Source: an uncultured Bacilli bacterium
GTDB lineage: Bacteria > Bacillota_I > Bacilli_A > RF39 > UBA660
Length of the DNA: 64,000 nucleotides
Assembly (NCBI GenBank): GCA_934155645.1
Contig: CAKPHC010000007.1
Coordinates: 9,475-73,474, forward strand
Reading direction: 5' to 3'
Part shown: piece after piece, positions 237 to 20,808 of the stretch
Layout: every line of letters starts with the position of its first letter
Position numbering within the stretch: position 1 is the first letter of the stretch
Made by a program: the position numbers and the translations under genes
Notes under the pieces: generated by a model
Told to the model about the DNA's origin: nothing
Databases searched by the model: none
What the model saw: the letters and a program-made list of their open reading frames with translations, nothing else

Positions 237-947
237 CTAACTTAAAAATTGTATTATTATTGGGGATAAAATTAGTAATAGTATTAATGGTATAAAGAAT
301 ATTACTGATATTACTGATACCTTTAATGGAATCTTACTAATTTTTGCTTTAGCATTTAATATTTGTTTATCCCTTATATAATCTATTTGATTATACATGG
401 TATCTATAATACTATTACCAAAGATATTTGATTGTGAAATATTTAAGATAATATTATTAATAGTATCTGATGGTATTCTTAGTTTTAAATTTTCTAATGC
501 TTCATTAAGACTTTTACCATATTTTACTTCTCTTAGTGCTTGCCTGAATTCATAAGATAATTCAGAATCAATACTGTTAGAAGTTATTTCTAATGCTGTT
601 TTTAAATTACGCCCAGTCTCTAATGATAATGTTAAAACTTCGAAAAAATACATTGCATCATTATCTAATTTTTCACTTCTTGCAGCAACTTTTTTATCTA
701 TTACTATTTTAGGTAAAACATTAAAATAAATAATTGATATTAAAGGTGCGGTAATATATCCCAATTTAGATATATATAATATCATAAAAAATATTAATAT
801 GGTAGTTAAAAATCTAATATTTAAGAAAATTACTGCATTATATGTATCTTTATACCCTAATAAATCTATTTTCTTTTGATATTTATTGATTGTTTCGGTA
901 CTGTATATTTTATATGCTAAGTTAAGATTTTTACTATTTCTTTTCAT
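237..947 (-). CDS. tadC: Tad/Flp pilus assembly membrane protein TadC-like (T2SS-F domain)
   Basis: 236 aa polytopic membrane protein with a GspF-like cytoplasmic domain. Last gene of the tadZ-tadA-tadB-tadC order and overlaps tadB by the ATGA start/stop. Confidence 0.7.
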
Positions 948-1963
948 TACATCATCACCTTAACTTTCATTACTCGTTTGATTACTATTATGTATAGGAT
1001 ATAGATAAGTATTATTATGAACAATATCATTATACCTATAGGATTAGTAAATAATGGGGTAAAATAATTAGGATTTAGAATAAATATTCCTAAGAAAAGT
1101 AATACTGGAATAAATACTAGTATTTGGAATATTGCTTTCGCTGATGCGGTTAATGCGCCTAGTTCTTCTTGTAGTTTTTTTCTAGTAAATGAATTACGCT
1201 CTACTGAAGCAAAAACTTGAACTATGTTACCACCTGTTTTATTTAAAACATTTAATGATGTAGTTATATATCTTGCTTCTTTCGTATCTATTCTTTTAGT
1301 AAATCTTTCGAATACAGTTTCCATATTCAATCCAAAAGATAAGTCGATGTACATTTTTTTAAATTCTTCACTGATAGGTCCATCTAATTCATTAGATACC
1401 ATATATATTGCTTGCATAATACTAAGACCAGATTTAAAGGAGTTGTTCATAATAATGATTGCCTTTAACATATCTTTCTCTATTTGTCTTTTGCGCATTT
1501 TTGTTTTAGATATTAATAATAAATCCGGAATATAGAACCCAATTAAGAAAGTTGTTACTAGTTGTAAAGATGTAATGTTTTTATATTGAAATATATTGGA
1601 TATAATAATTAGAATCATCATAGCAAATCCTGCTAATACTTTGGTTGAAATATAGTCCATTGCATCTTCTCTAATAATCTTAGTGTTATCACAATATTTT
1701 TCATATTTTTTGCTATAATCGTTAAAGATTTTCAGTTTATATAAGAGTTTAGATACTCTTTTTTTAATTCTATTATAAATTTTATGCACTTTATCAAATA
1801 AAGATAATTCTTCGTCTTTAATAACGTTTACAGCATATTTACTAAATCTTTTTTCTAATCTAGTTGCTCTATTTAATCTAATTAACCATAATACTACACC
1901 AAATAGTATTATAATCATTGTTATTTGTAGAATAAATAAATTCATATTGTAACCATTTGGCAT
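947..1963 (-). CDS. tadB: Tad/Flp pilus assembly membrane protein TadB-like (T2SS-F domain)
   Basis: 338 aa with an N-terminal TM helix, a central soluble domain and C-terminal TM helices typical of the T2SSF family. Lies between tadA and tadC. Confidence 0.7.
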   Translation of the reverse strand: MPNGYNMNLFILQITMIIILFGVVLWLIRLNRATRLEKRFSKYAVNVIKDEELSLFDKVHKIYNRIKKRVSKLLYKLKIFNDYSKKYEKYCDNTKIIREDAMDYISTKVLAGFAMMILIIISNIFQYKNITSLQLVTTFLIGFYIPDLLLISKTKMRKRQIEKDMLKAIIIMNNSFKSGLSIMQAIYMVSNELDGPISEEFKKMYIDLSFGLNMETVFERFTKRIDTKEARYITTSLNVLNKTGGNIVQVFASVERNSFTRKKLQEELGALTASAKAIFQILVFIPVLLFLGIFILNPNYFTPLFTNPIGIMILFIIILIYILYIIVIKRVMKVKVMM

Positions 1964-1974
1964 AATATTTCCTC

Positions 1975-3360
1975 CTAATCTTTTTTCTTTTTAGATTTTT
2001 GTTCTTTTTCTATAGCTTGGAAGATGTCATCTACTGAATGAACTCCCCTACTTACAATTTTCTTATATACACTTGGAATATAATTATAAAGAATAAATTC
2101 ACCATTTACTTCGCCTTTATCCGTTAATCCGTTTTGTTGGAAAGCAAAGATATCTTTTAAAATGATATTTTCACCATCAAATCCAGTTATTTCTGAGATT
2201 GATGTTACTTTACGGCGACCATCGCTCAATCTTTCGATATTTACTACTATATCTAAGGCTTTTTCAATATATTCACGTACTGCTTTTAAAGGAATATCTA
2301 TTCCACTCATTAAAATCATTGTTTCTAATCGATTTAGAGCATCGCTTGCAGAATTAGCATGTAGTGTAGTAAGTGAACCATCATGACCTGTGTTCATAGC
2401 TTGTAACATATCAAATGCTTCTTCACCACGAACTTCTCCTACTATAATACGGTCTGGTCTCATACGTAATGAGTTTCTTACAAGGTCTCTTATTGTTACT
2501 TCACCTTCACGTTCATAGTTAACATTTCTTGTTTCTAGTGAAATTACGTGAGTTTGTTTTAATCTTAATTCTACAGCATCTTCTATTGTTATAATACGTT
2601 CATCAGGATTAATAAAATTTGATAAAACATTTAATAGTGTTGTCTTACCAGAACCAGTTCCACCACACACTACCATGTTTAATTTAGCTTCAACACATGC
2701 ATCTAGAAATCTAGCCATATATGGAGTTAATGTACCATTACCAATTAAAGCTTCAATATTACTCATACTCTCTTTGAATTTACGAATTGTCATAACTGGA
2801 CCTTTAACTGATAAAGGTGGAATAATTGCATTGATTCTTGAACCATCTGGTAGGTGTGAGTCAACCATTGGATTAGTTGAATCTATAGTTCTACCTAGTG
2901 GTTGAACAATTCTTTGAATAGTTCTAATTATATGGTCATTATTGATAAATGAAACAGAATCATCTCTAATTAATTGACCATCTACTTCTATATATATTTC
3001 ATTTGGTCCGTTTACCATTATTTCAGTAACGTTTTTATCTTCCAATAATTCGGTAATTGGTCCATATCCATTAATTTCGTTTTCTATTAAGTTGAAGATG
3101 TGATTTCTTTCTACATTTGTTAAGTCATATCCTTCAGTAATTCTATCTATTTCTTCATTAATATATTGAGTTAAAACTTTTTCATCAGGTATTTGGTTAT
3201 CTATTAATTCTTGAATTATTGTATTTCTAAAGCGGTCAAGTAAATCTTTATCTTTAAAAATATCATAATCGTTAGTTATTTCTTTGCTATATTCTTTTTC
3301 GTTTTCATTTTTTTCTATTTCAAATTCTTCTAGCCAACTATTTTTCTTCATTTGCTTCAT
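1975..3360 (-). CDS. tadA: CpaF/TadA-type secretion ATPase (VirB11-like)
   Basis: 461 aa with Walker [14 protein letters not shown] and Walker B/Asp box motifs. Has the [10 protein letters not shown] and [14 protein letters not shown] motifs characteristic of the CpaF/TadA family. Confidence 0.85.
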
Positions 3361-4132
3361 CCCCTTTATAATCTTTTAATAGATTAAGTACAAAATTAGA
3401 AAGTTTAGCTGCCTCTTTAGCATTGTCTTTTAATACTTTTTCACATGCTTCTAGAAGGTTGCCATTTACAACGTATTTATCTAATCCCCTAATATAAAAT
3501 CTTTTTGGTATTGTATAGTTTATTTTGCTTTTTATAATACTTTCAATATCATAACTAGAATAGTAACCACGACCTTCATTAATTGCACTATTTAGTACTA
3601 GGACTAGGTTATCTACGTCCATATTTTTACATATTGAAATAAAGTTTTTAGTATTTTTTATATCAAATGAATCGTTTGTGAAAATATCTAAAATTACTTT
3701 GGAACACTCAAAAGCAACCATGTTTGTAACGCTTAGAATATGATTAGTATCTATTAGAATAACATCATATTTGTGAGAAAAACTTCTTAAAATTACTTCT
3801 AGATATTTACGGTCTATTTTAGATGCTTGTCTAGGATCTTTTGGAGAAGTAATTATATCAATGTATTCATCATATTTAATAACATAGTTTTCTTTAGAAT
3901 CTCCTTTGTAACGGTTGTTTGCAACATCATCACATAGATTGTATATACTTCCTTTAACATCAAGATTTAACGCAAAGGCAATATCGCCATTATATAAGTC
4001 TAAATCCATTATTAATACTCTTTTTTGAGCCTTTTTTAGAATAGCAGCAAGTTGTAAAACAGTTAAAGTTTTACCAACTCCACCTTTCATGGAAGTTACT
4101 GTTATTATTTTCCCTTTTTTTATTTTTGGCAT
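3338..4132 (-). CDS. ParA/MinD-type ATPase, TadZ/CpaE-like pilus localisation protein
   Basis: 264 aa with deviant Walker A SMKGGVGKT. Sits immediately upstream of tadA and overlaps it, as in tad loci. Confidence 0.7.
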   Translation of the reverse strand: MPKIKKGKIITVTSMKGGVGKTLTVLQLAAILKKAQKRVLIMDLDLYNGDIAFALNLDVKGSIYNLCDDVANNRYKGDSKENYVIKYDEYIDIITSPKDPRQASKIDRKYLEVILRSFSHKYDVILIDTNHILSVTNMVAFECSKVILDIFTNDSFDIKNTKNFISICKNMDVDNLVLVLNSAINEGRGYYSSYDIESIIKSKINYTIPKRFYIRGLDKYVVNGNLLEACEKVLKDNAKEAAKLSNFVLNLLKDYKGDEANEEK

Positions 4133-4147
4133 ATTTTCACATCCTCA

Positions 4148-4513
4148 TTATTGATATATTGGATTATCGTTATTTATTTTAAATGTTCTTTTAGAAGTAA
4201 TTGTATAGTTATTTCTACCAGTTACATTTCCAAAATAACTTGAAACTTCTTTTTTTAAGTTAATTTGTACTTCTTCAGCACTTACTAATATAAATTCCAC
4301 TTCAATGTCTTTATCATTTTTATTTATATAATCTTTTATTTCATCAACACTCATATTTCTTATTGCAGCATCTTTTATTACTAAATCATTTATTTGATTT
4401 AATTTATTTTTGTTATATGCAAGATAAGTGTTATCAATTATGTATACAGCACCTAGTAATAAAATTGGAATTATTAGAACAAATAAGATTAATACTTGAC
4501 CTTTATTATTCAT
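4148..4513 (-). CDS. TadE-like pseudopilin
   Basis: 121 aa. Short basic leader MNNKGQ followed by a hydrophobic helix VLILFVLIIPILLLGAVYIID, resembling the TadE N-terminal domain. Overlaps the next TadE-like gene. Confidence 0.5.
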   Translation of the reverse strand: MNNKGQVLILFVLIIPILLLGAVYIIDNTYLAYNKNKLNQINDLVIKDAAIRNMSVDEIKDYINKNDKDIEVEFILVSAEEVQINLKKEVSSYFGNVTGRNNYTITSKRTFKINNDNPIYQ

Positions 4514-4859
4514 ACTTAATCACCCTACTAGTGGATACTTTATATGGTGATGATAATATCAAGTTAAGTCCAGGTGTAATTATATCTATTTTTCTTGATA
4601 AAGTCACTGTCATGTATCCGTTTTCAGCATTACTTAGTGTTACTTCAATATTAGTTTTAGTATTTTGATTTACAGTTTTATTAATAGCATCGTAATCAAT
4701 TGAATCTCTATCAATGTCATTTATATAGCCTAAAGCTGTTTCTAATTCGTTTTTATTTACAAATATTCTACCAAAATCTATTACTGCAAATAAAAGCATA
4801 ATAAGAACTGGTAAAACTAAAATGAATTCAACTAATGCTTGACCTTTTTTATTGTTCAC
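4506..4859 (-). CDS. TadE-like pseudopilin with G/XXXXEF prepilin-peptidase motif
   Basis: 117 aa. MNNKKGQALVEFILVLPVLIMLLFAVIDFGRIF matches the TadE/TadF N-terminal domain and the Flp-type cleavage motif (G, four residues, E, F). Confidence 0.65.
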   Translation of the reverse strand: MNNKKGQALVEFILVLPVLIMLLFAVIDFGRIFVNKNELETALGYINDIDRDSIDYDAINKTVNQNTKTNIEVTLSNAENGYMTVTLSRKIDIITPGLNLILSSPYKVSTSRVIKYE

Positions 4860-4938
4860 TCTACCACCCCTATTATAGATTAATTATAGCACAGCACAAA
4901 AAAAAATAAAACTATAAAGTCTTATTTTTTTAATTCTA

Positions 4939-5517
4939 TTATGCTCCTGCTTGTGCATTGAAGAATTGTTGATAGTTAGCAGTAACTACAATGTTTTTAG
5001 TTAATTCATCAGGTTGTTCACCAGTTGTATCATCATAAGTAGCAACTAGTGTAATAGTTTCTCTACCTGTTGAAGCCGCTAATTTTGCTCTGTTAGTTAA
5101 ATCATCATCTGGAGATGGTGTTAATGTAAATGTAATTGGAGCTTCTCCTGTTTCAACTGCTGTGATTGATTTTAATACAGCATCTAGAGTTCCAGTGTTT
5201 TTAACTCCAATTGTACATGTTACTTGGTCTCCAGGTGTTTCTAATGAAACAGCTAATGTTGCAGTTGTACCAGATATTGCAATACCACTTCCATCTGAAC
5301 ATTTAGAAACAGTAGTATCTTGATCAAATTCTACCTTCCAAGTTGAACCAATTGTAGTAGTACCGTTTATTGTTAAGTTAGTTGTAAATGCAGCAAATGC
5401 TACAGCCATAACAATAACAACTGTACATAACATAACAATTAATATGCCTTTGTCCTTCATAATATCCTCCTTTATTATTACAAAATTATTGTAACATATT
5501 TTAGTAGTGTAATACAA
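4939..5517 (-). CDS. Secreted TasA/camelysin-like protein, paralog 1 of 5
   Basis: 192 aa. Signal peptide ending AFA|AF, then conserved LTINGTTTIGSTWKV and the (L/F)xxPGDxxxCxxxxxNxG(S/T)LDAxL motif, comparable to the B. subtilis TasA LKPGDKLTKDFQFENNGSLAIK segment. AGGAGG RBS. Confidence 0.6.
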   Translation of the reverse strand: MYYTTKICYNNFVIIKEDIMKDKGILIVMLCTVVIVMAVAFAAFTTNLTINGTTTIGSTWKVEFDQDTTVSKCSDGSGIAISGTTATLAVSLETPGDQVTCTIGVKNTGTLDAVLKSITAVETGEAPITFTLTPSPDDDLTNRAKLAASTGRETITLVATYDDTTGEQPDELTKNIVVTANYQQFFNAQAGA

Positions 5518-5539
5518 TATTTTTTGTAAAAAAAAGATA

Positions 5540-5575
5540 TAGGAAACTATATCTTTAATCCAAATTATTAGTTAA
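5540..5575 (-). terminator. Rho-independent terminator of paralog 2
   Basis: On the minus strand: AAAGATATAG-TTTC-CTATATCTTT stem-loop followed by TTTTTT. Confidence 0.6.
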
Positions 5576-5579
5576 AATC

Positions 5580-6149
5580 TTAACCTAATTTTTGTTCATA
5601 ACCGATAGTTACAGTTACAGTTTTTGTTTTAGTAGCTTCTGTTGCTGAACCAGTAGCATCAGCATCATAAGCAGCGTCAATTTTGTAAGTTTGAGTTTTA
5701 CCAGCTGCTAATGTATCACCTGTAGCTATGCCTGATAAGTTGTATTTAATTAAGTCAGCAGCTGTTACATCAAGTGAATTATCATCAGCAGTAACAGTTT
5801 TAGAAGCTCCTGAACCATCTTTTACAACTGTATCAATGCTTTTAACTTTAGCATCTAATGAACCAGTGTTAGAAATAGTTACATCACAGTGTCCTGTGTC
5901 TCCTGGTTGATTGAAAGTGAAGTCGAATTGAGCAGTTGTTGCTGTAAAGCTTTTAGTAACTGCTGCTGCTTGTCCACCTTCTACTGCAGTTGCATTGCAA
6001 TCGATTGCAGTAATAGCAACGTTCCATGTAGAACTGATTGTTGCTGTACCATTAATTGTTAATGTTGTTTGGAATGCTGCATAAGCTACTGCCATAACGC
6101 AAACTACTGCACATAGCATTCCGATTATAAGATTTTTGCTATCTTTCAT
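5580..6149 (-). CDS. Secreted TasA/camelysin-like protein, paralog 2
   Basis: 189 aa. MKDSKNLIIGMLCAVVCVMAVAYA|AFQTTLTINGTATISSTWNV ... FTFNQPGDTGHCDVTISNTGSLDAKVK. Has its own rho-independent terminator. Confidence 0.6.
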   Translation of the reverse strand: MKDSKNLIIGMLCAVVCVMAVAYAAFQTTLTINGTATISSTWNVAITAIDCNATAVEGGQAAAVTKSFTATTAQFDFTFNQPGDTGHCDVTISNTGSLDAKVKSIDTVVKDGSGASKTVTADDNSLDVTAADLIKYNLSGIATGDTLAAGKTQTYKIDAAYDADATGSATEATKTKTVTVTIGYEQKLG

Positions 6150-6185
6150 TTCTAATTTCCTCCCTTGTGTTTATCACACTATAAT

Positions 6186-6731
6186 TTATTTAATTTTTTG
6201 AGTAGCAACTGATGTGATTGATAATTTTGCTGTTTTAGCTGCTGCTGCTGGATCTTCAGTTATAGTACTCTTATATGTTCCTTGAACAGTGATTTCATGA
6301 GTAGCATTTTTACCAGCGTTTGCTAATAACTCTGTAGTTCCATTATTAGTAGCTCCTGTAACAACAAAGTCAATTGCATCTGTTCCATCAGCTCCAGTAA
6401 TTGTATGAGTTAATAATACGTCTACAGTACCACAGTTTTCATATACTACTTGGCAAGTAGCTGTGTCTCCAGGTTGAGTGAATCCCATAGTGATTGTAGC
6501 ATCTAATGCATTACCAGCAACTGATGCTTCAGCAGTAACTGAACCAGCAGCTCCACCTGAAACTGGTGTTTTAGTTGGGCAAGTTGCCTCCTTAATTCTT
6601 ACACACCATTCTGATGCGATTGTTGATGTACCATTAATTGTTAATGTTGTTGCGAATGCAGCGTAAGCTACAGCCATAACACAAACAACTGCACATAACA
6701 TACCAATTACTAAATTCTTACTATCCTTCAT
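6186..6731 (-). CDS. Secreted TasA/camelysin-like protein, paralog 3
   Basis: 181 aa with the same N-terminal module. Contains FTQPGDTATCQVVYENCGTVDVLL. Confidence 0.6.
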   Translation of the reverse strand: MKDSKNLVIGMLCAVVCVMAVAYAAFATTLTINGTSTIASEWCVRIKEATCPTKTPVSGGAAGSVTAEASVAGNALDATITMGFTQPGDTATCQVVYENCGTVDVLLTHTITGADGTDAIDFVVTGATNNGTTELLANAGKNATHEITVQGTYKSTITEDPAAAAKTAKLSITSVATQKIK

Positions 6732-6825
6732 TTTGTTTTTCTCCTTCCTTATCTTATAGATTGATTATAGCAAACATTATTTTAAAAGACAATACTTAAA
6801 ATATAAATTTGCATTTTTTTACACA

Positions 6826-6862
6826 AAATTTTCACAAAAAAACACGACCACTGTAAAGTCAT
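6826..6862 (-). terminator. Rho-independent terminator of paralog 4
   Basis: On the minus strand: AAACATGAC ... GTCGTGTTT stem with one G-U pair, followed by a T-run. Confidence 0.45.
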
Positions 6863-6874
6863 GTTTTTAAACAT

Positions 6875-7405
6875 TTAATTAAAGTTTTGAGTATAATTAG
6901 CAGTTACTTTTAATTCCTTAGTTTTATCGCTATCAAGAGGTTGTGATGTAATACTACTATCATATTTACCAGTTACAACTGCTGTATGTGTACCAGTTGT
7001 TTTTGATAAAACAGCGTTTTCAGTAAGACCTGTTACAGAAAGTCTTATTGGTCCTTCTTCATCTATTCCAGTTATTATTAATTCACTTAATTTTGCATCT
7101 ATATTTCCACAGTTTTCAAATATAATTGTACATACTGCTTGGTCTCCTGGTTGGGTAAACTCCATAGAAACTGTCGCTGTATTATTTGACACTTTACTAG
7201 CAGTAGCAGTAACTGATTCAGCACTTCCTCCGCTTACTGGAGTTGTAACACAAGTAGGATTATCTTTAATTCTTACACACCAATCTGATGTGATTGTTGC
7301 TGTACCGTTTATCTTTAAATTTGTTGCAAATGCTGCATAACCTACAGCCATGATTGCTATTAATGCACACAACAATCCAACTAGTAAACCTTTTTTATCT
7401 TTCAT
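6875..7405 (-). CDS. Secreted TasA/camelysin-like protein, paralog 4
   Basis: 176 aa with the same N-terminal module. Contains FTQPGDQAVCTIIFENCGNIDAKL. Own terminator downstream. Confidence 0.6.
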   Translation of the reverse strand: MKDKKGLLVGLLCALIAIMAVGYAAFATNLKINGTATITSDWCVRIKDNPTCVTTPVSGGSAESVTATASKVSNNTATVSMEFTQPGDQAVCTIIFENCGNIDAKLSELIITGIDEEGPIRLSVTGLTENAVLSKTTGTHTAVVTGKYDSSITSQPLDSDKTKELKVTANYTQNFN

Positions 7406-7443
7406 AATATACCCTCCTATTTTCTAAATTGATTATATCAAAA

Positions 7444-8616
7444 CTAACTGGCTATATCAACACCAAAACTCGTTTTATCATAATATTTAATCTGATTTTT
7501 ACTATGAACTATTTTAAATAACTCGTTATCTCTTAACATATAGTTTTCAATAACTGTTTTATCAAATAAGTTTTTTTCAATTCCTGCAATATTATATTGA
7601 GCTAGTCTATTACTGATTTTTCCAAACATAATATCACATTCTATTTCCATAGTATCATGTAACTTGTTATAAAAATTTTTAGGTTTTGTTTTAAATATTC
7701 TTTCTATTTCTCGAATCTCATTACAACCATTTCGTTCATTATACTGTGACAATAAGTAATCAAACTCAAAACTATTAGGAGCAGTCAATATTTTTAATAT
7801 TCCCTCTTCTTTTATATTGCTTTTCTGTTTTAAGAACTTGTCCAGTGTTATACCAAAAAAGTTATAATTAATTCTTCTTGCTAAGTTATTACGATATTGG
7901 TCTTTAGATATCGTATCAGATGATGGGTCAAATATATATAATCCCTCAATATCATTTTCTTTATCTTTTAGATGCGCTAAAGTAACATAGTTTATTTCAT
8001 TATCAACATTTACTTTTACTAATATTGCTGGTACATTGTTCATATTTAACAATTCTTTAAACAACAAATTGTATCCATAACTATTGGCTTTACCTTCACT
8101 TATTATTTCAGGTAATCTTCCATATTTATTTTTTCCATCATAGTCAAATAATTTAACTCTATCATACATTTTTAATACTTCATTAAAATTATTCTCACTA
8201 TCTTTTAAACATCTAGACTCATTAAACCACTCTTTTATCTTTCGATATTTTGCCATAGTAGTTATAGAACATCTATTTTCGTCTTTAGAATAAGCAATAT
8301 TCCAAGTATCAATGTTTAAGAAACTCATATTTGATAAAATCATATCATCATTTTCATCTATCTTTTTTAAAATGTATTTTTCAATTTTTGCATCATCAAT
8401 AGTTGGCAATCCTTCTAGTAGTAATTTTACTTTTTCGATACTCGCAATATCAATATCATCTTTAAAATATATTTGGGATAGATTAATTGGTGATGCTAGT
8501 AAGTTTATTAAATCACTTAGTTCAGAATCAGATAAAGGGTGGTCAAAAGATAAGTTGGATAATAACTTAGTTTTATTTTCTATATTTAAATCCATTAACT
8601 TAACCATTTCAACCAT
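7444..8616 (-). CDS. Hypothetical cytoplasmic protein (390 aa), first gene of the TasA-like/Tad cluster
   Basis: Long ORF with coding-like composition and no TM or signal peptide. I do not recognise a family. Confidence 0.4.
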   Translation of the reverse strand: MVEMVKLMDLNIENKTKLLSNLSFDHPLSDSELSDLINLLASPINLSQIYFKDDIDIASIEKVKLLLEGLPTIDDAKIEKYILKKIDENDDMILSNMSFLNIDTWNIAYSKDENRCSITTMAKYRKIKEWFNESRCLKDSENNFNEVLKMYDRVKLFDYDGKNKYGRLPEIISEGKANSYGYNLLFKELLNMNNVPAILVKVNVDNEINYVTLAHLKDKENDIEGLYIFDPSSDTISKDQYRNNLARRINYNFFGITLDKFLKQKSNIKEEGILKILTAPNSFEFDYLLSQYNERNGCNEIREIERIFKTKPKNFYNKLHDTMEIECDIMFGKISNRLAQYNIAGIEKNLFDKTVIENYMLRDNELFKIVHSKNQIKYYDKTSFGVDIAS

Positions 8617-8632: not shown

Positions 8633-9820
8633 TTATTTCTTTAAACCTTTCAACCCTTTTAGACCTTTACTTCCAGAAAATCCTTGTAAAATATTAGTAC
8701 TAAATGAGTGAACTTTATTTATTCTCTTTTTATAGTTTTTAATAGCAACATTTATCATTTCATCTAATAATTCTGAATAATTCTTATCAATAGGTTCCCA
8801 TAAATAGAACGCTAATGAACCAGGTATTGAATTAATCTCATTTACATATACTTTTTTCTTTTTCTTATCTATTAAGAAGTCTATTCTTACTACTCCAGAA
8901 CAGTTTAATGTTCTAAATACTTCTAAGGCATTAGATTGTACTTCTTCTTTTAATTTATCATCTATATCAGCTGGTATCTTTCTTGATGCAGAAGCCATAC
9001 CTTTACTTGCTCCACCTGTTTTTTTGCTAGAGCCAATATATTTGTCTTCGTATGTTAATAATTCGTTACCAGTCATTACTTGTTCAATAACACTGTATTG
9101 CATATGTTCATAGTTTCCTAAAACACTTATATTAACTTCTACTAAATTATCAACTACTTCTTCAACGATTACTTTATTATCGTAAGTAATAGCGTCTTCG
9201 ATAGCTCTTTGTAATTCATCACGATTGTGTGCTTTATTAATACCTACACTACTACCTAAAGTTGCTGGCTTAACCATTACTGGGTATTTTAATTTTTCAA
9301 TCATCTTTATAATTTTGTCATTGTCATCTAAGTATTCACTATCGAAAAACCATACAAAATCTGTTGTTGGTATGTTTGCTGATTGATAAATTTGCTTTTG
9401 GAAAATTTTATCTTGAGCTATAGCAGCAGAAGATACATCGCTTCCTACGAAAGGTATACCTATACTTTTTAAGTATCCTTGTAATACACCATCTTCAACG
9501 TTAGTTCCATGTACTATTGGGAAAGCCATATCAATTTCTTCTACTGTTCTTTTGAAGAAACCTTTAGATTGTAATACGAATTTCCCTTTTTTATGATATA
9601 GAACTACATTTTTACTATATCTTTTTAGAAGATCTAAGTCTTGATATACTTCAATATCTTTTAAAGATTTTCCAGTATACCACTCACCTTCCTTAGTAAT
9701 ATAGATTGGTATTACTTCATATTTTTCACTATCCATTTTATTCATTGCTTGGATAGCCGAAATAATACTAACCTCATGTTCAACTGATTCTCCACCAAAA
9801 ATAACACCTAATTTAATCAT
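8633..9820 (-). CDS. ddl: D-alanine--D-alanine ligase
   Basis: ATP-grasp protein with N-terminal GGxSxEHxVS and a C-terminal GLKGLKGLKK tail. Sits directly upstream of murF, the classical ddl-murF arrangement. Confidence 0.85.
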   Translation of the reverse strand: MIKLGVIFGGESVEHEVSIISAIQAMNKMDSEKYEVIPIYITKEGEWYTGKSLKDIEVYQDLDLLKRYSKNVVLYHKKGKFVLQSKGFFKRTVEEIDMAFPIVHGTNVEDGVLQGYLKSIGIPFVGSDVSSAAIAQDKIFQKQIYQSANIPTTDFVWFFDSEYLDDNDKIIKMIEKLKYPVMVKPATLGSSVGINKAHNRDELQRAIEDAITYDNKVIVEEVVDNLVEVNISVLGNYEHMQYSVIEQVMTGNELLTYEDKYIGSSKKTGGASKGMASASRKIPADIDDKLKEEVQSNALEVFRTLNCSGVVRIDFLIDKKKKKVYVNEINSIPGSLAFYLWEPIDKNYSELLDEMINVAIKNYKKRINKVHSFSTNILQGFSGSKGLKGLKGLKK

Positions 9821-13808: not shown

Positions 13809-15359
13809 TTATTCTTCATTAACATTGTTAATCTTATCTAATTCATCATCACTTATAACTTTAGTTTTTTCTATTTCATTTTTAATTTGTTCTTCTTTTA
13901 CTTCTTCTACTTTTTCAGTTTTTTGTGATGCTTTTTTCTTGTTATTTTCAAGAATTTTTTTTCTTTTAAATATTTGAATAACAATTAATATAACTAGTAC
14001 TAAAGTAATAAATAGTTCTAATACTAAATAGAAGCTTACTCTTTTATCTTTAACTATTGTGATTGTATAAGTAGTAGTATCGCTATCATCGCCTTCTTCT
14101 AATCCGATTGGTGATACTTTTATTTCGTATTTATCTCCTACTTTTAAATCAATTTTAGTATTATCATCAACTTTAACACCATTATAGTAAATTGTATATG
14201 TTACAGCTTTATCTCCTGATACAGTAACAATACTCATATCAAGGCCTTTTTTAAATTTCTTATTGAAAGTTACTTCATAAACCATAGTGTTTTTATCAAA
14301 GTCAAGTTTGTATCCTTTGATATATAAGGTTTTAATCTTAGTATCTACTGCTTTATCAGTATTGTCAAATGTTATAGTGTATTTCTTTTCTTCACCATTT
14401 TCTGAAGTAACAGTAATAATTACAACGTTTTCTCCAACAATTATTTGTTCTGGTATTTCTACTTTTACGGTTGCTTTAGAATCAACTGCTACAGCATCTA
14501 CTTCTAATTTTTTTAATTTATAAGTCTTAATTGTATAATCTGTTTTATTTTTAGATAATTCTAATTTTATTTTACCTGAATTAATTAATACTTCTTTTAA
14601 ATTATTATTAGTATTTCTATTATCTTCACGAGTAACTAGTATTTTATATACTTGAATATCGCCAGCTTCACTTTTTACTTTAATTAAGAATTCATTTTCA
14701 CCATACTTAACATCTACTTCTCTTGAACCAAAACCGTCTACAAATGTTGCATTAGCGTTGTTAGGAGTTGCTTTTAATTCGATTTTATCAGTATCAGATG
14801 ATACTTCCATTTCGTATTCATAAACATCACTTTTAAATTCAGCAACAGTTACACCATCTACTTTTAAATCTTTTAGTGAGTTATCAGTAGACTTTATAGC
14901 AAGTGAAACTTTATGAGAAGCACTTTCTGATACAGCAACTAAATTCTTACTATTATTCTCATCTAAAGTAGTAATTTTGATATTTTTTAATGTAATTATT
15001 GTAGTTTGCTTTGGAACATTATTCTTAACTTTAAAAGTTACAGTAGCAATAGTAGAAGTTCCACTTATACCGTCTTTATAGGTAAAAGTTAGATTGTTAG
15101 ATGAGTTATTGCCGTTCCATGATTTAGCAGTAACTCCTTTTAAATCTAAAATTTCTTTATCATATGATAATTCTGCTTCATATTTAATTGCTTTTTCTTC
15201 ATCAGGAGAAGTAATTTTAATATCATATGCTACAGTATCACCTGGACGAGCATATATAACTCCTGTTAATTCAGTTGTTGGTGCAGCAAGAACAGTTATT
15301 GGTAATAATAATGCTCCTACTATCAGTAAAAATAACCCCTTAATCTTTTTCATAAACAC
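13809..15359 (-). CDS. Cell-surface protein with cohesin/cadherin-like beta-sandwich domains and a C-terminal TM anchor
   Basis: Signal peptide, repeated beta-rich modules (LKDLKVDGVTV...YEYEMEV), then a C-terminal hydrophobic helix and charged tail. Confidence 0.55.
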   Translation of the reverse strand: MFMKKIKGLFLLIVGALLLPITVLAAPTTELTGVIYARPGDTVAYDIKITSPDEEKAIKYEAELSYDKEILDLKGVTAKSWNGNNSSNNLTFTYKDGISGTSTIATVTFKVKNNVPKQTTIITLKNIKITTLDENNSKNLVAVSESASHKVSLAIKSTDNSLKDLKVDGVTVAEFKSDVYEYEMEVSSDTDKIELKATPNNANATFVDGFGSREVDVKYGENEFLIKVKSEAGDIQVYKILVTREDNRNTNNNLKEVLINSGKIKLELSKNKTDYTIKTYKLKKLEVDAVAVDSKATVKVEIPEQIIVGENVVIITVTSENGEEKKYTITFDNTDKAVDTKIKTLYIKGYKLDFDKNTMVYEVTFNKKFKKGLDMSIVTVSGDKAVTYTIYYNGVKVDDNTKIDLKVGDKYEIKVSPIGLEEGDDSDTTTYTITIVKDKRVSFYLVLELFITLVLVILIVIQIFKRKKILENNKKKASQKTEKVEEVKEEQIKNEIEKTKVISDDELDKINNVNEE

Positions 15360-15367
15360 ACACTCCT

Positions 15368-16804
15368 TTAATTATTTACCCTGTGTTTTACCATTGGTGT
15401 ATCCATATCTATTGCTGCAAATTGATATCCATTTGCTATTCCATAATCTATTATATCATTTAATGCCTCTACTGTCTTGTCATTATTTTGAAAATCATGC
15501 ATCAAAACTACATTTGTTTGATTATGGCTTAAATGATTAACGACATTATTATAAACATCTTCCTTACTTTTAGCACTTCCAGCATCACCGCAATCAACGT
15601 TCCAATCGAAATAATGATATCCTTTAGTTATTACTTCTTTAGTTAACGTTTTCATAATTCCATGAGAATAGTTTTTACTTATAGTGTTAGAACCACCCCC
15701 TGGAAAACGAATTATTGTAGGTTTTACTCCTGTTATACCTTGAACTTTTTTACTTATCGCATCTAAGTCATTAAAGTATTTATCAACAGAAGTATATATT
15801 ATGTCATAACGATGTGTATAAGAGTGAAGCGCTACAGTATGACCTTCATTATATTCTCTTTTAATCAAATCATTTAAATCATCTGAGTGATTAATAACAA
15901 AGAAAGTTGCTTTAACATTTTTCTTTTTCAAAATATCTAATATTTTACTTGTTACATTACTAGGTCCATCATCAAAAGTTAAATAAATCATACTATTCTT
16001 ATATATTCCATTAGAATTAGCTGTATGTCTTACATAAACAACTCTTGAAGTTGATGCGATATTACCTTTAGTATCTTTAACACTATAATTTATCTTATAA
16101 CTACCTATTTCATTAGTATTCACTTCTTCAGTTACTTCTGTTTTAGAAGTTACATCTCCATCACAGTTATCACTTGCAGTATAACCTGGCTCTATATACT
16201 TACCACCTTTTTCGATATATAAAACTTTATCTCCTTTTAAAGTTATTTCAGGTTTAACATCATCTATTCTTTTTAATGTTCTAGTAACAACTGTTTTATT
16301 ACCGCTAGAATCACTTACTGTATATGTTATCTTTTTATTAGTTTCTTCTATTTTCACTTTAGAAGTTATGTCTCCATCATAATTATCAATAGCTTTATAT
16401 CCTTGTTCTTTATATTTTTTACCAGGACATGCAGATACTTCATTTCCACCTTCTAAGGTTATTTCAGGTTTTATATCATCTATTACTTTAACAATTCTTT
16501 CAGCTTCAGTACTAAAAAGACCTTTCTTTACAGTATATGATATTTTATATGTTCCTATTTTTTGTGAATTAACTTTTCCATTTATTTTAACTTCATCAGT
16601 AACATCTTTTCCTTGATAAGTAGCTTTTACTCCATTGTCACTATATTTTTCATTTAATTTAATAGTAACTACTCTTTTACCTAATAATTCAACATTAGGT
16701 GTAAAAAATATAAAACATACTGATACTATAGCAAGTATTAAGAGTAAAGAGACAAGCAATATTACAAGATTTCTTTCTTTAACTTTTCGTCTTTTTTTTA
16801 ACAC
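15368..16804 (-). CDS. Polysaccharide deacetylase (NodB/CE4) with N-terminal TM and Ig-like domains
   Basis: TFDDGP and HSYTH motifs of CE4 deacetylases in the C-terminal half. Two Ig-like repeats ending ...KPEITL(E/K)G. Confidence 0.75.
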   Translation of the reverse strand: MLKKRRKVKERNLVILLVSLLLILAIVSVCFIFFTPNVELLGKRVVTIKLNEKYSDNGVKATYQGKDVTDEVKINGKVNSQKIGTYKISYTVKKGLFSTEAERIVKVIDDIKPEITLEGGNEVSACPGKKYKEQGYKAIDNYDGDITSKVKIEETNKKITYTVSDSSGNKTVVTRTLKRIDDVKPEITLKGDKVLYIEKGGKYIEPGYTASDNCDGDVTSKTEVTEEVNTNEIGSYKINYSVKDTKGNIASTSRVVYVRHTANSNGIYKNSMIYLTFDDGPSNVTSKILDILKKKNVKATFFVINHSDDLNDLIKREYNEGHTVALHSYTHRYDIIYTSVDKYFNDLDAISKKVQGITGVKPTIIRFPGGGSNTISKNYSHGIMKTLTKEVITKGYHYFDWNVDCGDAGSAKSKEDVYNNVVNHLSHNQTNVVLMHDFQNNDKTVEALNDIIDYGIANGYQFAAIDMDTPMVKHRVNN

Positions 16805-16896: not shown

Positions 16897-17589
16897 TTAC
16901 ATTTTCTTATTTTTCATAAATTCTCTTAATATTTTAGTAAGAGCGCGTTTTTCAATACGTGATACATAACTTCTCGAAATTTTTAAATCTTTAGCAATTT
17001 CTTTTTGAGTTTGTTCACTAGTATTATTAAGTCCATATCTTTTTATTAGTATTTCTTTTTCTCTTTTATTTAGTACTTTTATATAATCTTTTAGTAACTC
17101 AATATTATCTTTGGTTTGAATTTCTTCAGCAAAATCTGGTTTGGGCATTTTTAAGACATCTAAGATAGTAATTTCGTTACCTTCTTTATCAAAACCGATT
17201 GATTCATTAATTGATATATTTTTGTTGTTTTTATTATTACTTCTAAAGTACATTAGTATTTCATTTTCAATACATCTAGCACAATAAGTTGTTATTCTAG
17301 TACCATGGCGATTAGAGTATGAATCTACTCCTTTTATTAGTCCAATTGTACCTATACTTATTAAGTCATCTTGGTCTACATTTTTATAGTCAAATTTCTT
17401 TACGATGTGTGCGACTAATCTAAGATTATGTTCTATTAGCTTGTTTCTAGCATCTTTATCTCCTAATTTAGCAAGTTCTATATATTTATCCTCTTCTTCT
17501 TTTGTTAATGGGTCTGGGAAAATATTATTAGAATAGGACGCTGTAAAAAACATTAAACTTTTAATTAGTTCTAATAATGACAACCACAT
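16897..17589 (-). CDS. sigK: Sporulation sigma factor SigK (pro-sigma-K), uninterrupted
   Basis: NKLIEHNLRLVAHIVKKF, DLISIGTIGLIKG and YCARCIENEILM closely match the B. subtilis SigK regions. There is an N-terminal pro-sequence and no skin-like insertion. Confidence 0.9.
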   Translation of the reverse strand: MWLSLLELIKSLMFFTASYSNNIFPDPLTKEEEDKYIELAKLGDKDARNKLIEHNLRLVAHIVKKFDYKNVDQDDLISIGTIGLIKGVDSYSNRHGTRITTYCARCIENEILMYFRSNNKNNKNISINESIGFDKEGNEITILDVLKMPKPDFAEEIQTKDNIELLKDYIKVLNKREKEILIKRYGLNNTSEQTQKEIAKDLKISRSYVSRIEKRALTKILREFMKNKKM

Positions 17590-17628
17590 ATACTTCCTCC
17601 TAATAAAGTATATGTTTAGTTTTATAAT

Positions 17629-18909
17629 TTATTTTTCACTATTTAATAACCAGTCGATAACATTGATTTTAGTTATTCCGTCGTAATCAGCATCTAAGTC
17701 CATATCTAAAGTTAATAAATATTTTGGATAATGGTCTCCTGTTTTTTGTAATGATTTCAATTCTCTTTCAAGAACTTTTTCATCTCTTACTGATAATGCA
17801 ACTTGGTAATATCTTAATCCGTCTCTATTTTCAGCTACAAAGTCTACTTCTAAGTCATCTACTTTACCAACATATACTTTGTATCCTCGTCTTAGTAATT
17901 CTAAATACACTATATTTTCTAATACATGCCCCATATCACTATCAGCTTTTTTACCTAAAAGATAACTTCTAAGTCCTGTATCAACCGCATAGTATTTATA
18001 ATCTCTTACTAGAAGATTTTTACCTTTAACATCAAATCTTTCAGCTTTATATATCAAGAAACTTTCTAAAAATGATGTTAGGTAATTTTCTACAGTATGA
18101 TTACTTGTAGACATACCTTTACTTGTTAAAGTATCACTTATTTTTTTAGTGGATACTGGGCTTCCAATACTATCAAAAATAAATTTTAAAATATTTTCTA
18201 ACAGCATTTTATCGGTTATATTATTTCTTGCCATTATATCTTTATAAACAATAGTAGAAAATATTCCGTCTAGGTATTTGTCAACACCATCGGCATTAGT
18301 TTTTAATATATTTATATTTCCAGGCATACCACCATTTCTCATATATTCTAAGAATAATTTTTGGTAATTATCACTATCAAAAGCAGTGACATATTCTTTA
18401 AATGATAGTGGTAACATTTTTATTTCTATATATCTACCTGAAAGTAAAGTCGCAAGTTCACCAGATAATAAATATGCATTAGAACCAGTAATATATACAT
18501 CGACATTTTTCTTTATATATAAACTATCAACAGCTTTCTGAAAATTAGGAACGTTTTGAACTTCATCTAAAAAAACATAATATTGTTTATCAGAATCTAT
18601 TTTAGCATTTATATAATCATAAAGTTCTTTATATCCAGTAAATTCATAATCAACATCTTCTAAATTTATATGAATTATTTGGTCATCACTTATATTATCT
18701 TTTTTTAGATAATTTATGAATAATTCAAATAAAGTGGATTTTCCACATCTTCTTATTCCTGTGATTACTTTGATTAAATCTTTATCTCTCCATTTTTTTA
18801 ATTCTTCTAAATATTCAGGTCTTTCTATCATATCAATCACCTCTAGATAATTATATATCAGCTTTAACTCTAAGTCAAGTTTTGGAAATATTTTTCCAAA
18901 ACTTGACAA
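17629..18909 (-). CDS. AAA+ ATPase of the DUF4143/AAA_14 family
   Basis: Walker A GIRRCGKST and Walker B VFLDEVQ, with a C-terminal DUF4143-like region. Confidence 0.7.
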   Translation of the reverse strand: MSSFGKIFPKLDLELKLIYNYLEVIDMIERPEYLEELKKWRDKDLIKVITGIRRCGKSTLFELFINYLKKDNISDDQIIHINLEDVDYEFTGYKELYDYINAKIDSDKQYYVFLDEVQNVPNFQKAVDSLYIKKNVDVYITGSNAYLLSGELATLLSGRYIEIKMLPLSFKEYVTAFDSDNYQKLFLEYMRNGGMPGNINILKTNADGVDKYLDGIFSTIVYKDIMARNNITDKMLLENILKFIFDSIGSPVSTKKISDTLTSKGMSTSNHTVENYLTSFLESFLIYKAERFDVKGKNLLVRDYKYYAVDTGLRSYLLGKKADSDMGHVLENIVYLELLRRGYKVYVGKVDDLEVDFVAENRDGLRYYQVALSVRDEKVLERELKSLQKTGDHYPKYLLTLDMDLDADYDGITKINVIDWLLNSEK

Positions 18910-18911
18910 AA

Positions 18912-20333
18912 TCAGATACTTTTGGAAATACTATTGAAATAGTTTTCTACTACATCATAATCGCAATATTTAATATATTTATCTTCAACAGCCATATAAT
19001 TATCTCTACCTTTTCCTGCTATTAAGATAATATCTCCACTTCTAGCATGGTCTAATGCAAAGTTTATAGCTTCTTCTCTATCTATTATTACCTCATAACA
19101 ACCCTTATTATCTTTTATCATTTCATTTATTATTTCTTGGGGATTTTCATATCTAGGGTCATCAGTAGTAAAAATAACTAAATCAGAATTATCTAAAACT
19201 ACTTTTCCCATTTTATTACGTTTTTCTTTTTCTCTACCTCCAGCACTTCCAGTTATTGTAATAATTCTATTCTTTTTTATTTTGTTTAAATATTTAAGAA
19301 TTGATAATAAACCATTAGGAGTATGGGCATAATCAAGTACTATTTTATAAGGAGTATTAAAATCTAAAAACTCACATCTACCCTTAGGAATTGTTATGTT
19401 TTCTATACGAGGTAGAATATCTTCTATAGTAAAATCAAGAGACAACATACAAAGTATTGCTGCCATTAAGTTATAAACATTAAATTCACCTATTAAAGGA
19501 CTTGTTATATTATAAATATTATTTTTATAAGAAAAACTTATCTCCGTACTATTCTCTTTTTCAGTTATTTCTTTAATACATAAATCAGCATTTATATTTT
19601 TTCCATAAGTAATTTTATTTTTAGTAATATTAGAAAAATCATTATAATGTTCATCATCAATGTTAAGAATAGCTATTCCAGTATCTTTTATTTTTTTAAA
19701 TAAAAGCTTCTTACTATTAATATAATTTTCCATACTTTTATGAACATTTAAATGGTCTTCTGTAATATTAGTTAATATTCCTATATCAAAAAGAAATGAA
19801 TCTAATCTTCCATGTAAAAGACTTTCACTAGAAGTCTCCATTGCAACATATTTTAAGTCTTCTTTGTTAAACAAATATAAATACTTATATATAATGTGAC
19901 ACTCAGGAGTTGTATTTGATATTTTATCATTAATTTTTTTACCCATTACTCCATTAGTACCTATATAACCACATAAATCTTTACCTAATAAATCTCTTAT
20001 TATAGTAGCAGTTGTTGTTTTACCGTCGGTCCCAGTAATACCTATTAGTTTAAGTTTAGTATCAGGATAATCATAAAACTTTCTAGATAAGGTTGCTAAC
20101 TCTTTATTAGGATTAGATACTTTTATAAATGGTACTTTGTAATTACCAGTTTTTTTAACTATTAAAAAAGATGCACCATTAGATACTGCTTCATCAATAA
20201 AATCATGACGGTCACAACTAATTCCTTTAGTGCATACAAATAAATCTCCAGGATTAACTTCTTTAGAGTTAATCTTAATATCTTTTATTAAAGTATTGTA
20301 TTTACAATCATAAAGTTCATTTATTTTTTTCAT
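18912..20333 (-). CDS. murE: UDP-N-acetylmuramoyl-L-alanyl-D-glutamate ligase for the third amino acid
   Basis: GITGTDGKTTTA P-loop, Mur ligase domains and a DDPR-type motif near the C-terminus. Confidence 0.85.
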   Translation of the reverse strand: MKKINELYDCKYNTLIKDIKINSKEVNPGDLFVCTKGISCDRHDFIDEAVSNGASFLIVKKTGNYKVPFIKVSNPNKELATLSRKFYDYPDTKLKLIGITGTDGKTTTATIIRDLLGKDLCGYIGTNGVMGKKINDKISNTTPECHIIYKYLYLFNKEDLKYVAMETSSESLLHGRLDSFLFDIGILTNITEDHLNVHKSMENYINSKKLLFKKIKDTGIAILNIDDEHYNDFSNITKNKITYGKNINADLCIKEITEKENSTEISFSYKNNIYNITSPLIGEFNVYNLMAAILCMLSLDFTIEDILPRIENITIPKGRCEFLDFNTPYKIVLDYAHTPNGLLSILKYLNKIKKNRIITITGSAGGREKEKRNKMGKVVLDNSDLVIFTTDDPRYENPQEIINEMIKDNKGCYEVIIDREEAINFALDHARSGDIILIAGKGRDNYMAVEDKYIKYCDYDVVENYFNSISKSI

Positions 20334-20627
20334 TATATCACCACTATATTATAAGTAATTAACCTATAGAGGTGATTTATAGTTAATTATAATTGTAAAC
20401 AAAATCTTTTAATTCTTCACTAATCATTACTCTATATTTAGTTCTTTTATCTTATTCATTAGAAAAAATTATAAAAAAAACAAACGCCCTTTCGATAATA
20501 TTTACCTACTAACACGCTTGTTCTCAGTTACTTCTATTTAGCATTACTGCTAGGAAAATACTTGTTTCTTCAAGAATCGTTTTACCATAACTTACGTTAT
20601 AAATTCATCCACAATCTGAAGAAATTC

Positions 20628-20740: not shown

Positions 20741-20782
20741 CCCTATATATATAAATTTTATATATACCATAGTTTTGGAAGG

Positions 20783-20808
20783 CCAGTTGCAAAGGGTTTT
20801 GCAACTGG
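20783..20808. other. Perfect 11-bp inverted repeat (CCAGTTGCAAA-GGGT-TTTGCAACTGG) between VR and TR
   Basis: Read directly from the sequence. Lies just 3' of the target gene stop and has no T-run, so it is not a classic terminator. Confidence 0.5.

Follow-up and report, generated by a model that had tools for sequence, protein, structure and literature searches.

A tandem array of paralogs beside a pilin-less Tad operon: probable TasA-like fibre subunits in an uncultured Bacilli bacterium

The 64,000-nucleotide stretch of DNA analysed here (the window), taken from a contig of an uncultured Bacilli bacterium, carries a tandem array of four related genes, and the question it raises is what kind of proteins these genes encode and how they might be exported. 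All four were confirmed on the minus strand, and a fifth, long-form paralog lies elsewhere in the window:

6875 to 7405, minus strand: P4, 176 aa, Cys-rich with four Cys in the mature part, own promoter and terminator
6186 to 6731, minus strand: P3, 181 aa, Cys-rich paralog
5580 to 6149, minus strand: P2, 189 aa
4939 to 5460, minus strand: P1, 173 aa, true start the ATG at 5460
20834 to 22477, minus strand: long-form paralog, 547 aa, likely start the MKSKK codon at 22462

P1 had been listed as an open reading frame of 4939-5517 with a TTG start, and was corrected to begin at the ATG at 5460 (MKDKGIL...) because this ATG aligns with the paralogs. P3 and P2 lie in the same frame, with three stop codons interrupting a read-through from one to the other. 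Pairwise phmmer comparison of the window paralogs gives E-values of 1e-20 to 5e-48, far beyond chance, and the mature proteins are acidic, with a pI of 4.1-4.8. Searches of the four array proteins against Pfam and NCBIfam returned nothing above cut-off. The long form has a signal peptide, conserved segment and beta-sandwich as in the short paralogs, so that the same N-terminal domain of ~170 aa is followed by a C-terminal extension of ~360-370 aa; this C-terminal domain has no family match and is common to 12 other long forms, all from genomes that carry the family in a Tad context (described below).

The array appears to form three transcription units, P4, P3-P2 and P1, with extended -10 promoter-like sites upstream of P4, P3 and P1. 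The signals around them are:

7432 to 7460, minus strand: promoter-like site before P4, TTGATA-17-TATAAT with TG, 11/12 matches
6831 to 6868, minus strand: terminator-like hairpin after P4, 12-bp stem and U-run, -12.3 kcal/mol, z -2.8
6764 to 6792, minus strand: promoter-like site before P3, TTGTCT-17-TATAAT with TG
5527 to 5556, minus strand: terminator-like hairpin after P2, 10-bp stem and U8, -10.8 kcal/mol, z -2.75
4895 to 4931, minus strand: A/U-rich hairpin and U-run after P1, -10.2 kcal/mol, z about -3
downstream of the P1 hairpin, before the first Tad gene: extended -10 TGTGCTATAAT

An earlier note on this DNA had assigned each gene its own promoter-like region and terminator. This holds for P4 but not for P3 and P2, which are separated by a 36-bp gap with no terminator in it and, judging from the sequence, are probably co-transcribed, leaving three units rather than four.

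The paralogs are tightly conserved at one end and divergent over the rest. Residues 2-42 are 59-88% identical among the window paralogs and the remainder 27-46%, while column entropy across 28 array members from seven genomes is 0.5-0.8 bits over the first 40 residues and 1.2-2.2 bits thereafter, dipping at a PGD...N.G..D motif common to all five paralogs. The near-identical signal peptide, early mature residues and PGD core described in the earlier note are thus borne out, with ~42 N-terminal residues common to the five. The divergence it placed in the last 80-100 residues is also real, but begins at about residue 43 and takes in the whole mature domain, which remains alignable throughout and folds as one beta-sandwich (AF2 pLDDT 87). 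Recent gene conversion as the source of the N-terminal identity was considered and rejected: synonymous divergence in the conserved N-terminal codons is as high as in the rest of the gene (dS 0.76 to saturated), and the identity is therefore kept by purifying selection. Paralog-against-paralog dN/dS comparisons were saturated, and omega was taken from orthologues at the level of gene regions; between the window and the related genome L006 it is 0.11-0.23 in the N-terminal module and 0.39-0.50 in the mature part, which makes no case for positive selection. Mature-domain omega between orthologues ranges from 0.24 to 0.50, 4-7 times that of the Tad core genes (0.07-0.09) yet below 1, so that the diversifying selection proposed earlier finds no support in that form. 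The companion proposals fared better. The same dS range, together with orthogroups conserved across seven species (the window and six Tad-context genomes), supports the view that these are not recent simple duplicates, and the preserved order of those orthogroups fits subunit specialisation. The P2 orthogroup is present in 7/7 of these genomes, and the P1 type is the last array gene in 6/7, being absent from L008. Copy number does vary, as had been suggested for checking, from 2 to 7 copies between species; among 23 contigs with an identical P4 it is constant at 4 in the four distinct gene arrangements listed, where the one difference seen lies in P2, with alleles of 185 and 189 aa. At the sequence level, the evidence supports an old origin and a specialisation of the paralogs.

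The conserved N-terminal module has a recognisable architecture. A putative Sec signal peptide ends in a signal peptidase I (SPase I) site, [GA][YF][AS]↓A[FL] (arrow, predicted cleavage), followed by a predicted x-aromatic mature N-terminus. We scored the site in 140 sequences, those bearing the motif among 152 non-redundant family N-termini taken from the window and the fetched loci. G/A/S stands at -3 in 99% of them, A/S at -1 in 99% and A at +1 in 87%; at +2, F (77%), L (19%) and Y (2%) together make up 98%. From +2 to +22, hydrophobic or small residues recur at every second place (F,T,L,I,G,A,I,S,W,V,I), most of them conserved at 77-98%, and mature position 4 is T/Q/S, not acidic. In the AF2 model of P4, a signal helix (residues 4-29) is followed by a low-confidence coil (30-43) and the beta-sandwich (44-173); pLDDT is ~60 over the 21-residue segment in the monomer model and 92-97 in the sandwich, as one would expect for a strand dependent on a partner. 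The alternating pattern and the model together make this 21-residue stretch a candidate donor strand.

The genomic context of relatives points the same way. At 35/77 genome loci, a tandem run of one to five short paralogs leads into genes for a polytopic signal peptidase I of 380 aa and a DUF5305 protein; a long paralog is often present as well, and the surroundings hold no pilus genes. Against the TIGR02228 model (cut-off 51.9) the peptidase reaches 92.7 bits, against SipW 73 bits, and the DUF5305 protein has an E-value of 5e-19. A dedicated SipW/archaeal-type SPase I thus accompanies the family at large, but not the window locus: motif and phmmer --max searches found no signal peptidase in the 64-kb window, and both SPase I and DUF5305 are absent from the window, from all loci fetched from the six related Tad-context genomes and from the further family loci fetched from Tad-context genomes (0/21). 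The N-terminal module is nevertheless the same in peptidase-context and Tad-context members.

The family itself is large, a profile search returning 595 clusters (50% identity) at E <= 1e-30 and 4,833 at E <= 1e-10, and is without a Pfam or NCBIfam label. Among solved structures, the best sequence matches are AbpX and TasA, at borderline E-values of 0.002-0.16 that rest largely on the PGD...N.G region, a region that generic Ig-like repeats also carry; a larger profile of 64 sequences gives no better E-values. When single members were searched (n=64), 39 matched a DUF11 repeat, 38 choice-of-anchor D, 8 BsaA (TIGR04090) and 5 TasA. The best DUF11 repeat match, among relatives, has an E-value of 2.5e-6, and DUF7507, DUF11 and CARDB lie at or just above cut-off in one homologue; the window proteins fall below all cut-offs of the curated DUF11, CARDB and choice-of-anchor D models. 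The likeness to these last modules is at the level of fold only.

AbpX-like biomatrix fibril loci of the TasA superfamily are described from Bacillota, Chloroflexota and Thermoproteota, each AbpX-type locus comprising a 10-TM SPase I, a DUF5305 accessory protein, minor subunits and tip proteins; AbpX homologues are reported to be acidic and to have a conserved, calcium-binding acidic residue at mature position 4 (bioRxiv 10.64898/2026.01.04.697558). AbpX is, though remote, the best sequence match among solved structures (E 0.002-0.05), and the relatives' locus is of the same type, with putative major/minor subunits in tandem, a polytopic TIGR02228 SPase I, DUF5305 and longer 'tip' paralogs. 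An aromatic residue in mature position 2 and an acidic composition are further common traits, as is the amphipathic strand at the N-terminus, which is putative in the window family. In contrast to AbpX, the window family lacks an acidic residue at position 4, and a calcium-binding donor-strand mechanism is therefore not expected in it; its conserved extension is longer and contains an invariant N-G, its locus in the window clade lacks the peptidase and DUF5305 and adjoins a Tad operon, and no SLH, LPXTG or sortase partner lies near the window genes. A second comparison is with Bacillus subtilis TasA (tapA-sipW-tasA) and Clostridium perfringens BsaA/BsaB (sipW-bsaABC), with which the family shares the PGD...N.G.L motif, a SipW-type peptidase in relatives, several paralogous subunits in one locus and the weak TIGR04090 and TasA matches given above. 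The predicted cut of the signal peptide falls before A-F, and the mature end of TasA likewise reads AF.., chain 8aur_A starting at DIKS at residue 4. Here too there are differences: no match reaches a curated cut-off, there is no TapA-like gene, the stretch from the N-terminus to PGD is ~25 residues longer in the window family's domain, and the BsaA-type Asn-Lys isopeptide lock is unlikely, as the window family has no conserved Lys.

The resemblance to Ig modules of non-fibre surface proteins, of the DUF11/CARDB type, raises the question of whether these proteins polymerise at all. They could instead constitute a surface family in which a common signal/anchor module, uncleaved or cleaved and then wall-associated, carries variable ectodomains for adhesion or antigenic variety. 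The fast evolution of the mature domains would suit such a role, as would the very high copy numbers of some genomes (at least 14 loci in one MAG and at least 7 in another), for the most part solitary long forms whose C-terminal domains differ. However, a dedicated signal peptidase encoded beside the genes speaks for cleavage, the strictly alternating segment is the most conserved part and would be left disordered and without a role in the monomer, and the tandem short forms in conserved order resemble sets of major and minor subunits. We consider a non-polymerising family quite unlikely.

Immediately downstream of the array lies a second system, which the earlier note overlooked, as it did the signal-peptidase context of the relatives. 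Its genes form a set of the Tad (type IVc) type:

237 to 4859, minus strand: Tad-type module adjoining the array
4506 to 4859, minus strand: TadE-like pseudopilin (TadE1), with a canonical G↓QALVEF
4148 to 4513, minus strand: second pseudopilin, without E5
3338 to 4132, minus strand: TadZ/ParA-like ATPase
1975 to 3360, minus strand: CpaF/TadA ATPase
947 to 1963, minus strand: TadB
237 to 947, minus strand: TadC

The TadE Pfam match scores 50 bits (cut-off 22.9), the T2SSF domains 43 and 63 bits, and the ATPase 323 bits on TIGR03819, below the cut-off of 373. No Flp pilin or TadV was found in the locus or the window, and no prepilin peptidase in the Tad locus; a regular-expression scan of the window and the six related genomes for small ORFs resembling Flp gave a single match, a lipoprotein in L010, and no Flp candidate. 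A 390-aa gene upstream (7444-8616), which precedes the array in all Tad-context loci, was considered as part of the system and rejected, because a distant homologue sits in a murF-ddl block followed by topA, without array or Tad genes.

The position of the genes, before a Flp-less Tad operon and next to CpaF, TadB and TadC, is that of pilins, and the paralogs might accordingly be pilins of the Tad machine in the archaeal style, retaining the helix as a core below an Ig-like head after a prepilin cut behind MKD(S)K(G/N). The predicted helix-plus-sandwich architecture is like that of archaeal pilins, and the Sulfolobus AAP pilin 8q30 is matched weakly (Foldseek rank 10, profile E 0.06), as is archaeal Pilin_N by one homologue (E 0.09). 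The N-termini argue otherwise. No class III signal peptide was found in the paralogs: directly behind the last leader charge stands N in 64% of members, against 16% for G and S combined, and Q/F at +1, E at +5 and the Flp G/XXXXEY motif are all missing, though TadE1 next door has a textbook site. The hydrophobic stretch ends instead in a strict SPase I site, the peptidase loci of relatives lie away from pilus genes, and a prepilin peptidase is missing from the locus, all of which makes a pilin identity very unlikely.

Another link would keep the paralogs as fibre subunits and couple their export or assembly to the Tad machine, the Flp-less Tad acting as a Gram-positive type II-secretion-like piston or platform across the wall. 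The array lies directly upstream of TadE1, a terminator and a promoter being all that separates them, not only in the window but also in six genomes at species level (L006-L011) and, further off, in contig L087, and the Tad module has neither Flp nor another candidate major subunit in its locus. The two contexts are also exclusive in the loci fetched: the family loci from Tad-context genomes have neither SPase I nor DUF5305, and no Tad gene lies within 10 kb of any peptidase-context locus. The Tad module with its two pseudopilins might then replace or supplement the SPase I/DUF5305 pair of other lineages. A precedent may exist in C. perfringens, where secretion is partly dependent on type IV pilus genes, that of BsaC and, less conclusively, that of the TasA-like BsaA oligomers (PMC11580942). 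Against this, array and Tad genes each have promoters of their own, separated by a terminator, and the same six-gene module persists beside yebC in more distant relatives (L083-L085) with no family member within 10 kb. Because these relatives keep the module alone, it predates the array and works without it as a neighbour. All Tad-context genomes form one clade, so that the linkage may be by descent. The position of the array upstream of a pilin-less Tad operon is unusual, but functional coupling is unproven, and we regard it as unlikely, if less so than the two alternatives above. The corresponding history, in which the clade lost its SipW/DUF5305 pair and the fibre became wired to the Flp-less Tad, with the pseudopilus helping to push or nucleate it through the wall, is similarly doubtful; if true, it would offer evidence from natural genomes that type IV filaments assist in secreting TasA-family matrix proteins, an idea for which C. 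perfringens has so far supplied no more than suggestive, noisy genetic data.

The reading we favour, and consider probable, is that the four genes and their long paralog encode Sec-exported subunits of a TasA-superfamily extracellular fibre, closest to the AbpX-like kind. The fibre-subunit interpretation of the earlier note thereby gains support from homology and genomic context. Under the proposed mechanism, the signal peptide would be cut after [GA]-[YF]-[AS] by a type I (SipW/archaeal-type) signal peptidase, leaving a mature N-terminus of the form AF(A/S/Q)T.L.INGTA.I...W.V. This amphipathic extension would act as the donor strand and insert into the beta-sandwich of the neighbouring subunit. 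It would therefore have to stay compatible among all paralogs, while the exposed sandwich surfaces would be free to drift. The short paralogs would be old specialised subunits, major and minor, and the long forms, which add an extra domain to the same polymerisation module, may be tip or adhesin subunits.

Donor-strand fibres of the TasA type are increasingly recognised as a principle on which biofilm matrices are built across domains of life, and the family described here would extend that principle to gut Bacilli with small genomes that are represented by MAGs only. With a curated model of the signal-plus-strand module, thousands of surface proteins now called 'hypothetical' would receive an annotation, and the array before a pilin-less Tad operon offers a place to test whether type IV-like machinery aids fibre export in Gram-positives.

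The window is low in GC (~27%) and carries nearly all of its genes on the minus strand, and its closest public relatives are MAGs from the guts of humans, rabbits and ruminants that carry the label uncultured Bacilli. Four tandem paralogs (P1-P4) and a fifth, long-form paralog are placed as follows.

Gene order, right to left
8633-9820: ddl, preceded by murF at the right end of the region
7444-8616: 390-aa gene, function unassigned, between ddl and P4
6875-7405, minus: P4, paralog of the array
6186-6731, minus: P3, paralog of the array
5580-6149, minus: P2, paralog of the array
4939-5460, minus: P1, paralog of the array; true start the ATG at 5460 rather than the TTG given by the automatic ORF call
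4506-4859, minus: TadE1, TadE-like, Tad module
4148-4513, minus: TadE2, TadE-like, Tad module
3338-4132, minus: ParA/TadZ-like ATPase, Tad module
1975-3360, minus: CpaF/TadA ATPase, Tad module
947-1963, minus: TadB, Tad module
237-947, minus: TadC, Tad module
20834-22477, minus: fifth paralog, with a ~170-aa N-terminal part as in P1-P4 and a ~370-residue extension

The highest-GC 2-kb bins of the window (6001-8000 and 20001-22000; 0.31-0.32 versus ~0.27) both overlap family genes, probably because the family proteins are 40-49% Thr/Ser/Ala/Gly. Upstream of the murF-ddl block lie two surface-protein genes (13809-16804, minus strand), for which Pfam annotations at the matching position in two relatives (L086, L087) suggest a cohesin/cadherin-like protein and an Ig-like polysaccharide deacetylase.

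The paralogs match one another at E 1e-20 to 5e-48. The shared N-terminus and variable remainder described in the earlier note are borne out by pairwise identity (59-88% over residues 2-42, 27-46% thereafter) and by column entropy across 28 array members from seven genomes (0.5-0.8 bits over the first 40 residues, later 1.2-2.2 bits with a dip at PGD...N.G), but these profiles place the onset of divergence at about residue 43 rather than halfway along the protein. The mature part is a single alignable beta-sandwich throughout; the AF2 monomer model (pLDDT 87) contains a helix at 4-29, coil at 30-43 (pLDDT ~60) and nine strands in 44-173. Mature P1 and P2 have two conserved-position cysteines and P3 and P4 have four, one lying just after PGD. 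Such cysteines are not usual in proteins that an anaerobic Firmicute secretes, and they point to disulfides or a different role.

To define the conserved N-terminal module, 168 members of the family, taken from the window and 82 fetched loci, were reduced to 152 non-redundant sequences, of which the 140 with the motif were scored. The module starts with a short K/R-rich stretch and a hydrophobic stretch (median 19 residues), followed by [GAS]-[YF]-[AS] at -3 to -1, with 99% compliance at both -3 and -1, A at +1 in 87% and F/L/Y at +2 in 98%. This pattern conforms to the classical signal peptidase I rule. Where prepilin-peptidase cleavage would fall, members have N in 64% and G or S in 16%, with E at +5 absent, whereas the neighbouring TadE1 carries the canonical G↓QALVEF. 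From +2 to +22, alternate residues are hydrophobic or small (F, T, L, I, G, A, I, S, W, V, I), and L6, I8, N9 and G10 are conserved at 91-98%; the invariant N-G-T here doubles as an N-glycosylation sequon. These 21 residues form the best-conserved portion of the mature protein yet are unstructured in the monomer model, as expected of strand pairing with another subunit, and the module would thus combine a signal peptide with a donor strand.

Between the window paralogs, the N-terminal codons have dS from 0.76 to saturated, which indicates that N-terminal identity is kept by selection rather than by gene conversion. In a neighbour-joining tree, orthogroups cut across genomes: the P1 type invariably closes the array, the P2 type occurs in every one of the seven genomes, the Cys-rich P3/P4 type has extra copies specific to particular lineages, and a further type is missing from the window. 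As the earlier note held, these are therefore not recent simple duplicates. Estimates of omega (Nei-Gojobori, window versus L006, a species with the same Tad context) were 0.11-0.23 for the N-terminal module, 0.067 for CpaF, 0.081 for TadB, 0.094 for TadC, 0.23 for TadE1 and 0.37 for TadE2; the mature domains of the paralogs gave 0.39-0.50, which does not demonstrate positive selection, and the proposed diversifying selection is not upheld. Sequence comparison supports paralogs that would be old and specialised, with fast-evolving exposed parts. Paralog number varies between species (2-7) but is constant at four in all four distinct arrangements shown, among 23 contigs with identical P4, where only the P2 allele differs (185 versus 189 aa, 94% identical; P4 and P1 100%).

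Extended -10 promoter-like sites precede P4, P3, P1 and also TadE1, and hairpin plus U-run terminators follow P4, P2 and P1 (-12.3, -10.8 and -10.2 kcal/mol; z about -3). The 36-bp P3-P2 gap contains only a ribosome-binding site, so the signals delimit three transcription units rather than a promoter and terminator for every gene, as had been proposed.

A word-indexed protein search found only 15 homologues, while an exhaustive profile search returned far more cluster representatives: 9,523 at E <= 1e-3 (including generic Ig repeats), 4,833 at E <= 1e-10 and 595 at E <= 1e-30. The 150 best representatives listed comprise short (~165-190 aa) and long (207-1,074 aa) forms, nearly all opening with the N-terminal module, apart from three giant multi-repeat proteins matching only via the PGD...N.G region. 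We recovered 77 loci from one-genome-per-species contigs and scanned them with the family HMM and neighbour sequences.

Locus contexts of the family
Context A, window and six species (L006-L011): 390-aa gene, then 3-7 short paralogs, then six Tad genes
Context B, 35 loci: 1-5 short paralogs, then a ~380-aa protein, then DUF5305; long paralog often nearby
Context C, the other 36 loci, many of them on short contigs: mostly long forms standing alone; the fetched flanks contain neither the context-A nor the context-B neighbours

Many members can share one context-C genome: two MAGs hold at least 14 and at least 7 loci, respectively. The ~370-residue extension of the fifth paralog matches no family. 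Its C-terminal domain (~300 aa), likewise without a library match, is shared by 12 further long-form members (L030, L033, L037, L039, L042, L044, L048, L050, L069, L006:18050-19441), every one of them from a Tad-context genome and at least six of them in a single MAG; compared with these, the window copy carries a ~75-residue insert. At L046:6979-10525, two near-identical short-paralog pairs between secA and ppdK are separated by an opposite-strand transposase-like gene, which looks like IS-associated duplication of a pair.

In the ~380-aa context-B protein, some 250 polytopic N-terminal residues precede a SipW/archaeal-type signal peptidase I domain (TIGR02228 92.7 bits, cut-off 51.9; SipW 73 bits), and the next protein matches DUF5305 at E 5e-19. 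These loci match those of bacterial and archaeal AbpX homologues, which encode a ten-TM signal peptidase I, a DUF5305 accessory protein, minor subunits and tip proteins (bioRxiv 10.64898/2026.01.04.697558); haloarchaeal Tafi pilus loci also include DUF5305 (PMC12337348). Against all PDB sequences, the family profile ranked AbpX 1-2 (E 0.002, 0.009), with an alignment starting at the conserved ATIS in the N-terminal segment and extending through PGD...N.G, and TasA 3-4 (0.09, 0.13); a 64-sequence profile ranked AbpX 1-2 (E 0.014, 0.047), the Sulfolobus AAP type IV pilin 3 (0.06) and TasA 4-5 (0.15, 0.16). The case for membership of the TasA superfamily is thus built mainly on the N-terminal motif combined with the locus type rather than solely on the core domain. 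The family is probably an unannotated, new member of the TasA/AbpX kind of putative donor-strand fibre. The major and minor fibre subunits suggested earlier are the best supported explanation, and a reasonably probable one.

The six-gene Tad-type module (237-4859, minus strand; also L083-L085 and L087) is always followed by yebC and is kept across a wide clade of uncultured Bacilli, with a canonical TadE1 site (G/A↓QAL(V/I)EF) and a TadE2 that lacks E5. Neither a Flp-like ORF nor a prepilin peptidase was found in the module, whose locus is bounded by ddl and yebC. It is conceivable that fibre export or assembly is coupled to this module, since a preprint on C. perfringens reports that secretion of BsaC and, less conclusively, TasA-like BsaA oligomers depend on type IV pilus genes (PMC11580942). 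The two contexts were also not seen together: the peptidase/DUF5305 pair occurs in none of 21 other family loci fetched from the Tad-context genomes, and Tad genes occur in no fetched peptidase-context locus. These Tad-context genomes are, however, all related, and contigs with TadB homologues at 57-61% identity carry the same six genes beside yebC and have no member of the family in the surrounding 10 kb, so that the module is older than its association with the array; we consider coupling unlikely. In one contig, whose homologue of the 390-aa gene is 44% identical, two members of the family separate that gene from TadE1; the adjacency thus spans a subclade. Genes with an N_methyl prepilin motif lie 3-5 kb downstream of the peptidase/DUF5305 pair in L001 (one, 15374-15739) and L004 (four in tandem, 16987-19843), which may be no more than chance synteny or may again hint at a type IV filament link. 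For a family read as TasA/AbpX-like fibre subunits, the one feature that might represent new biology is its placement before a pilin-less Tad operon.
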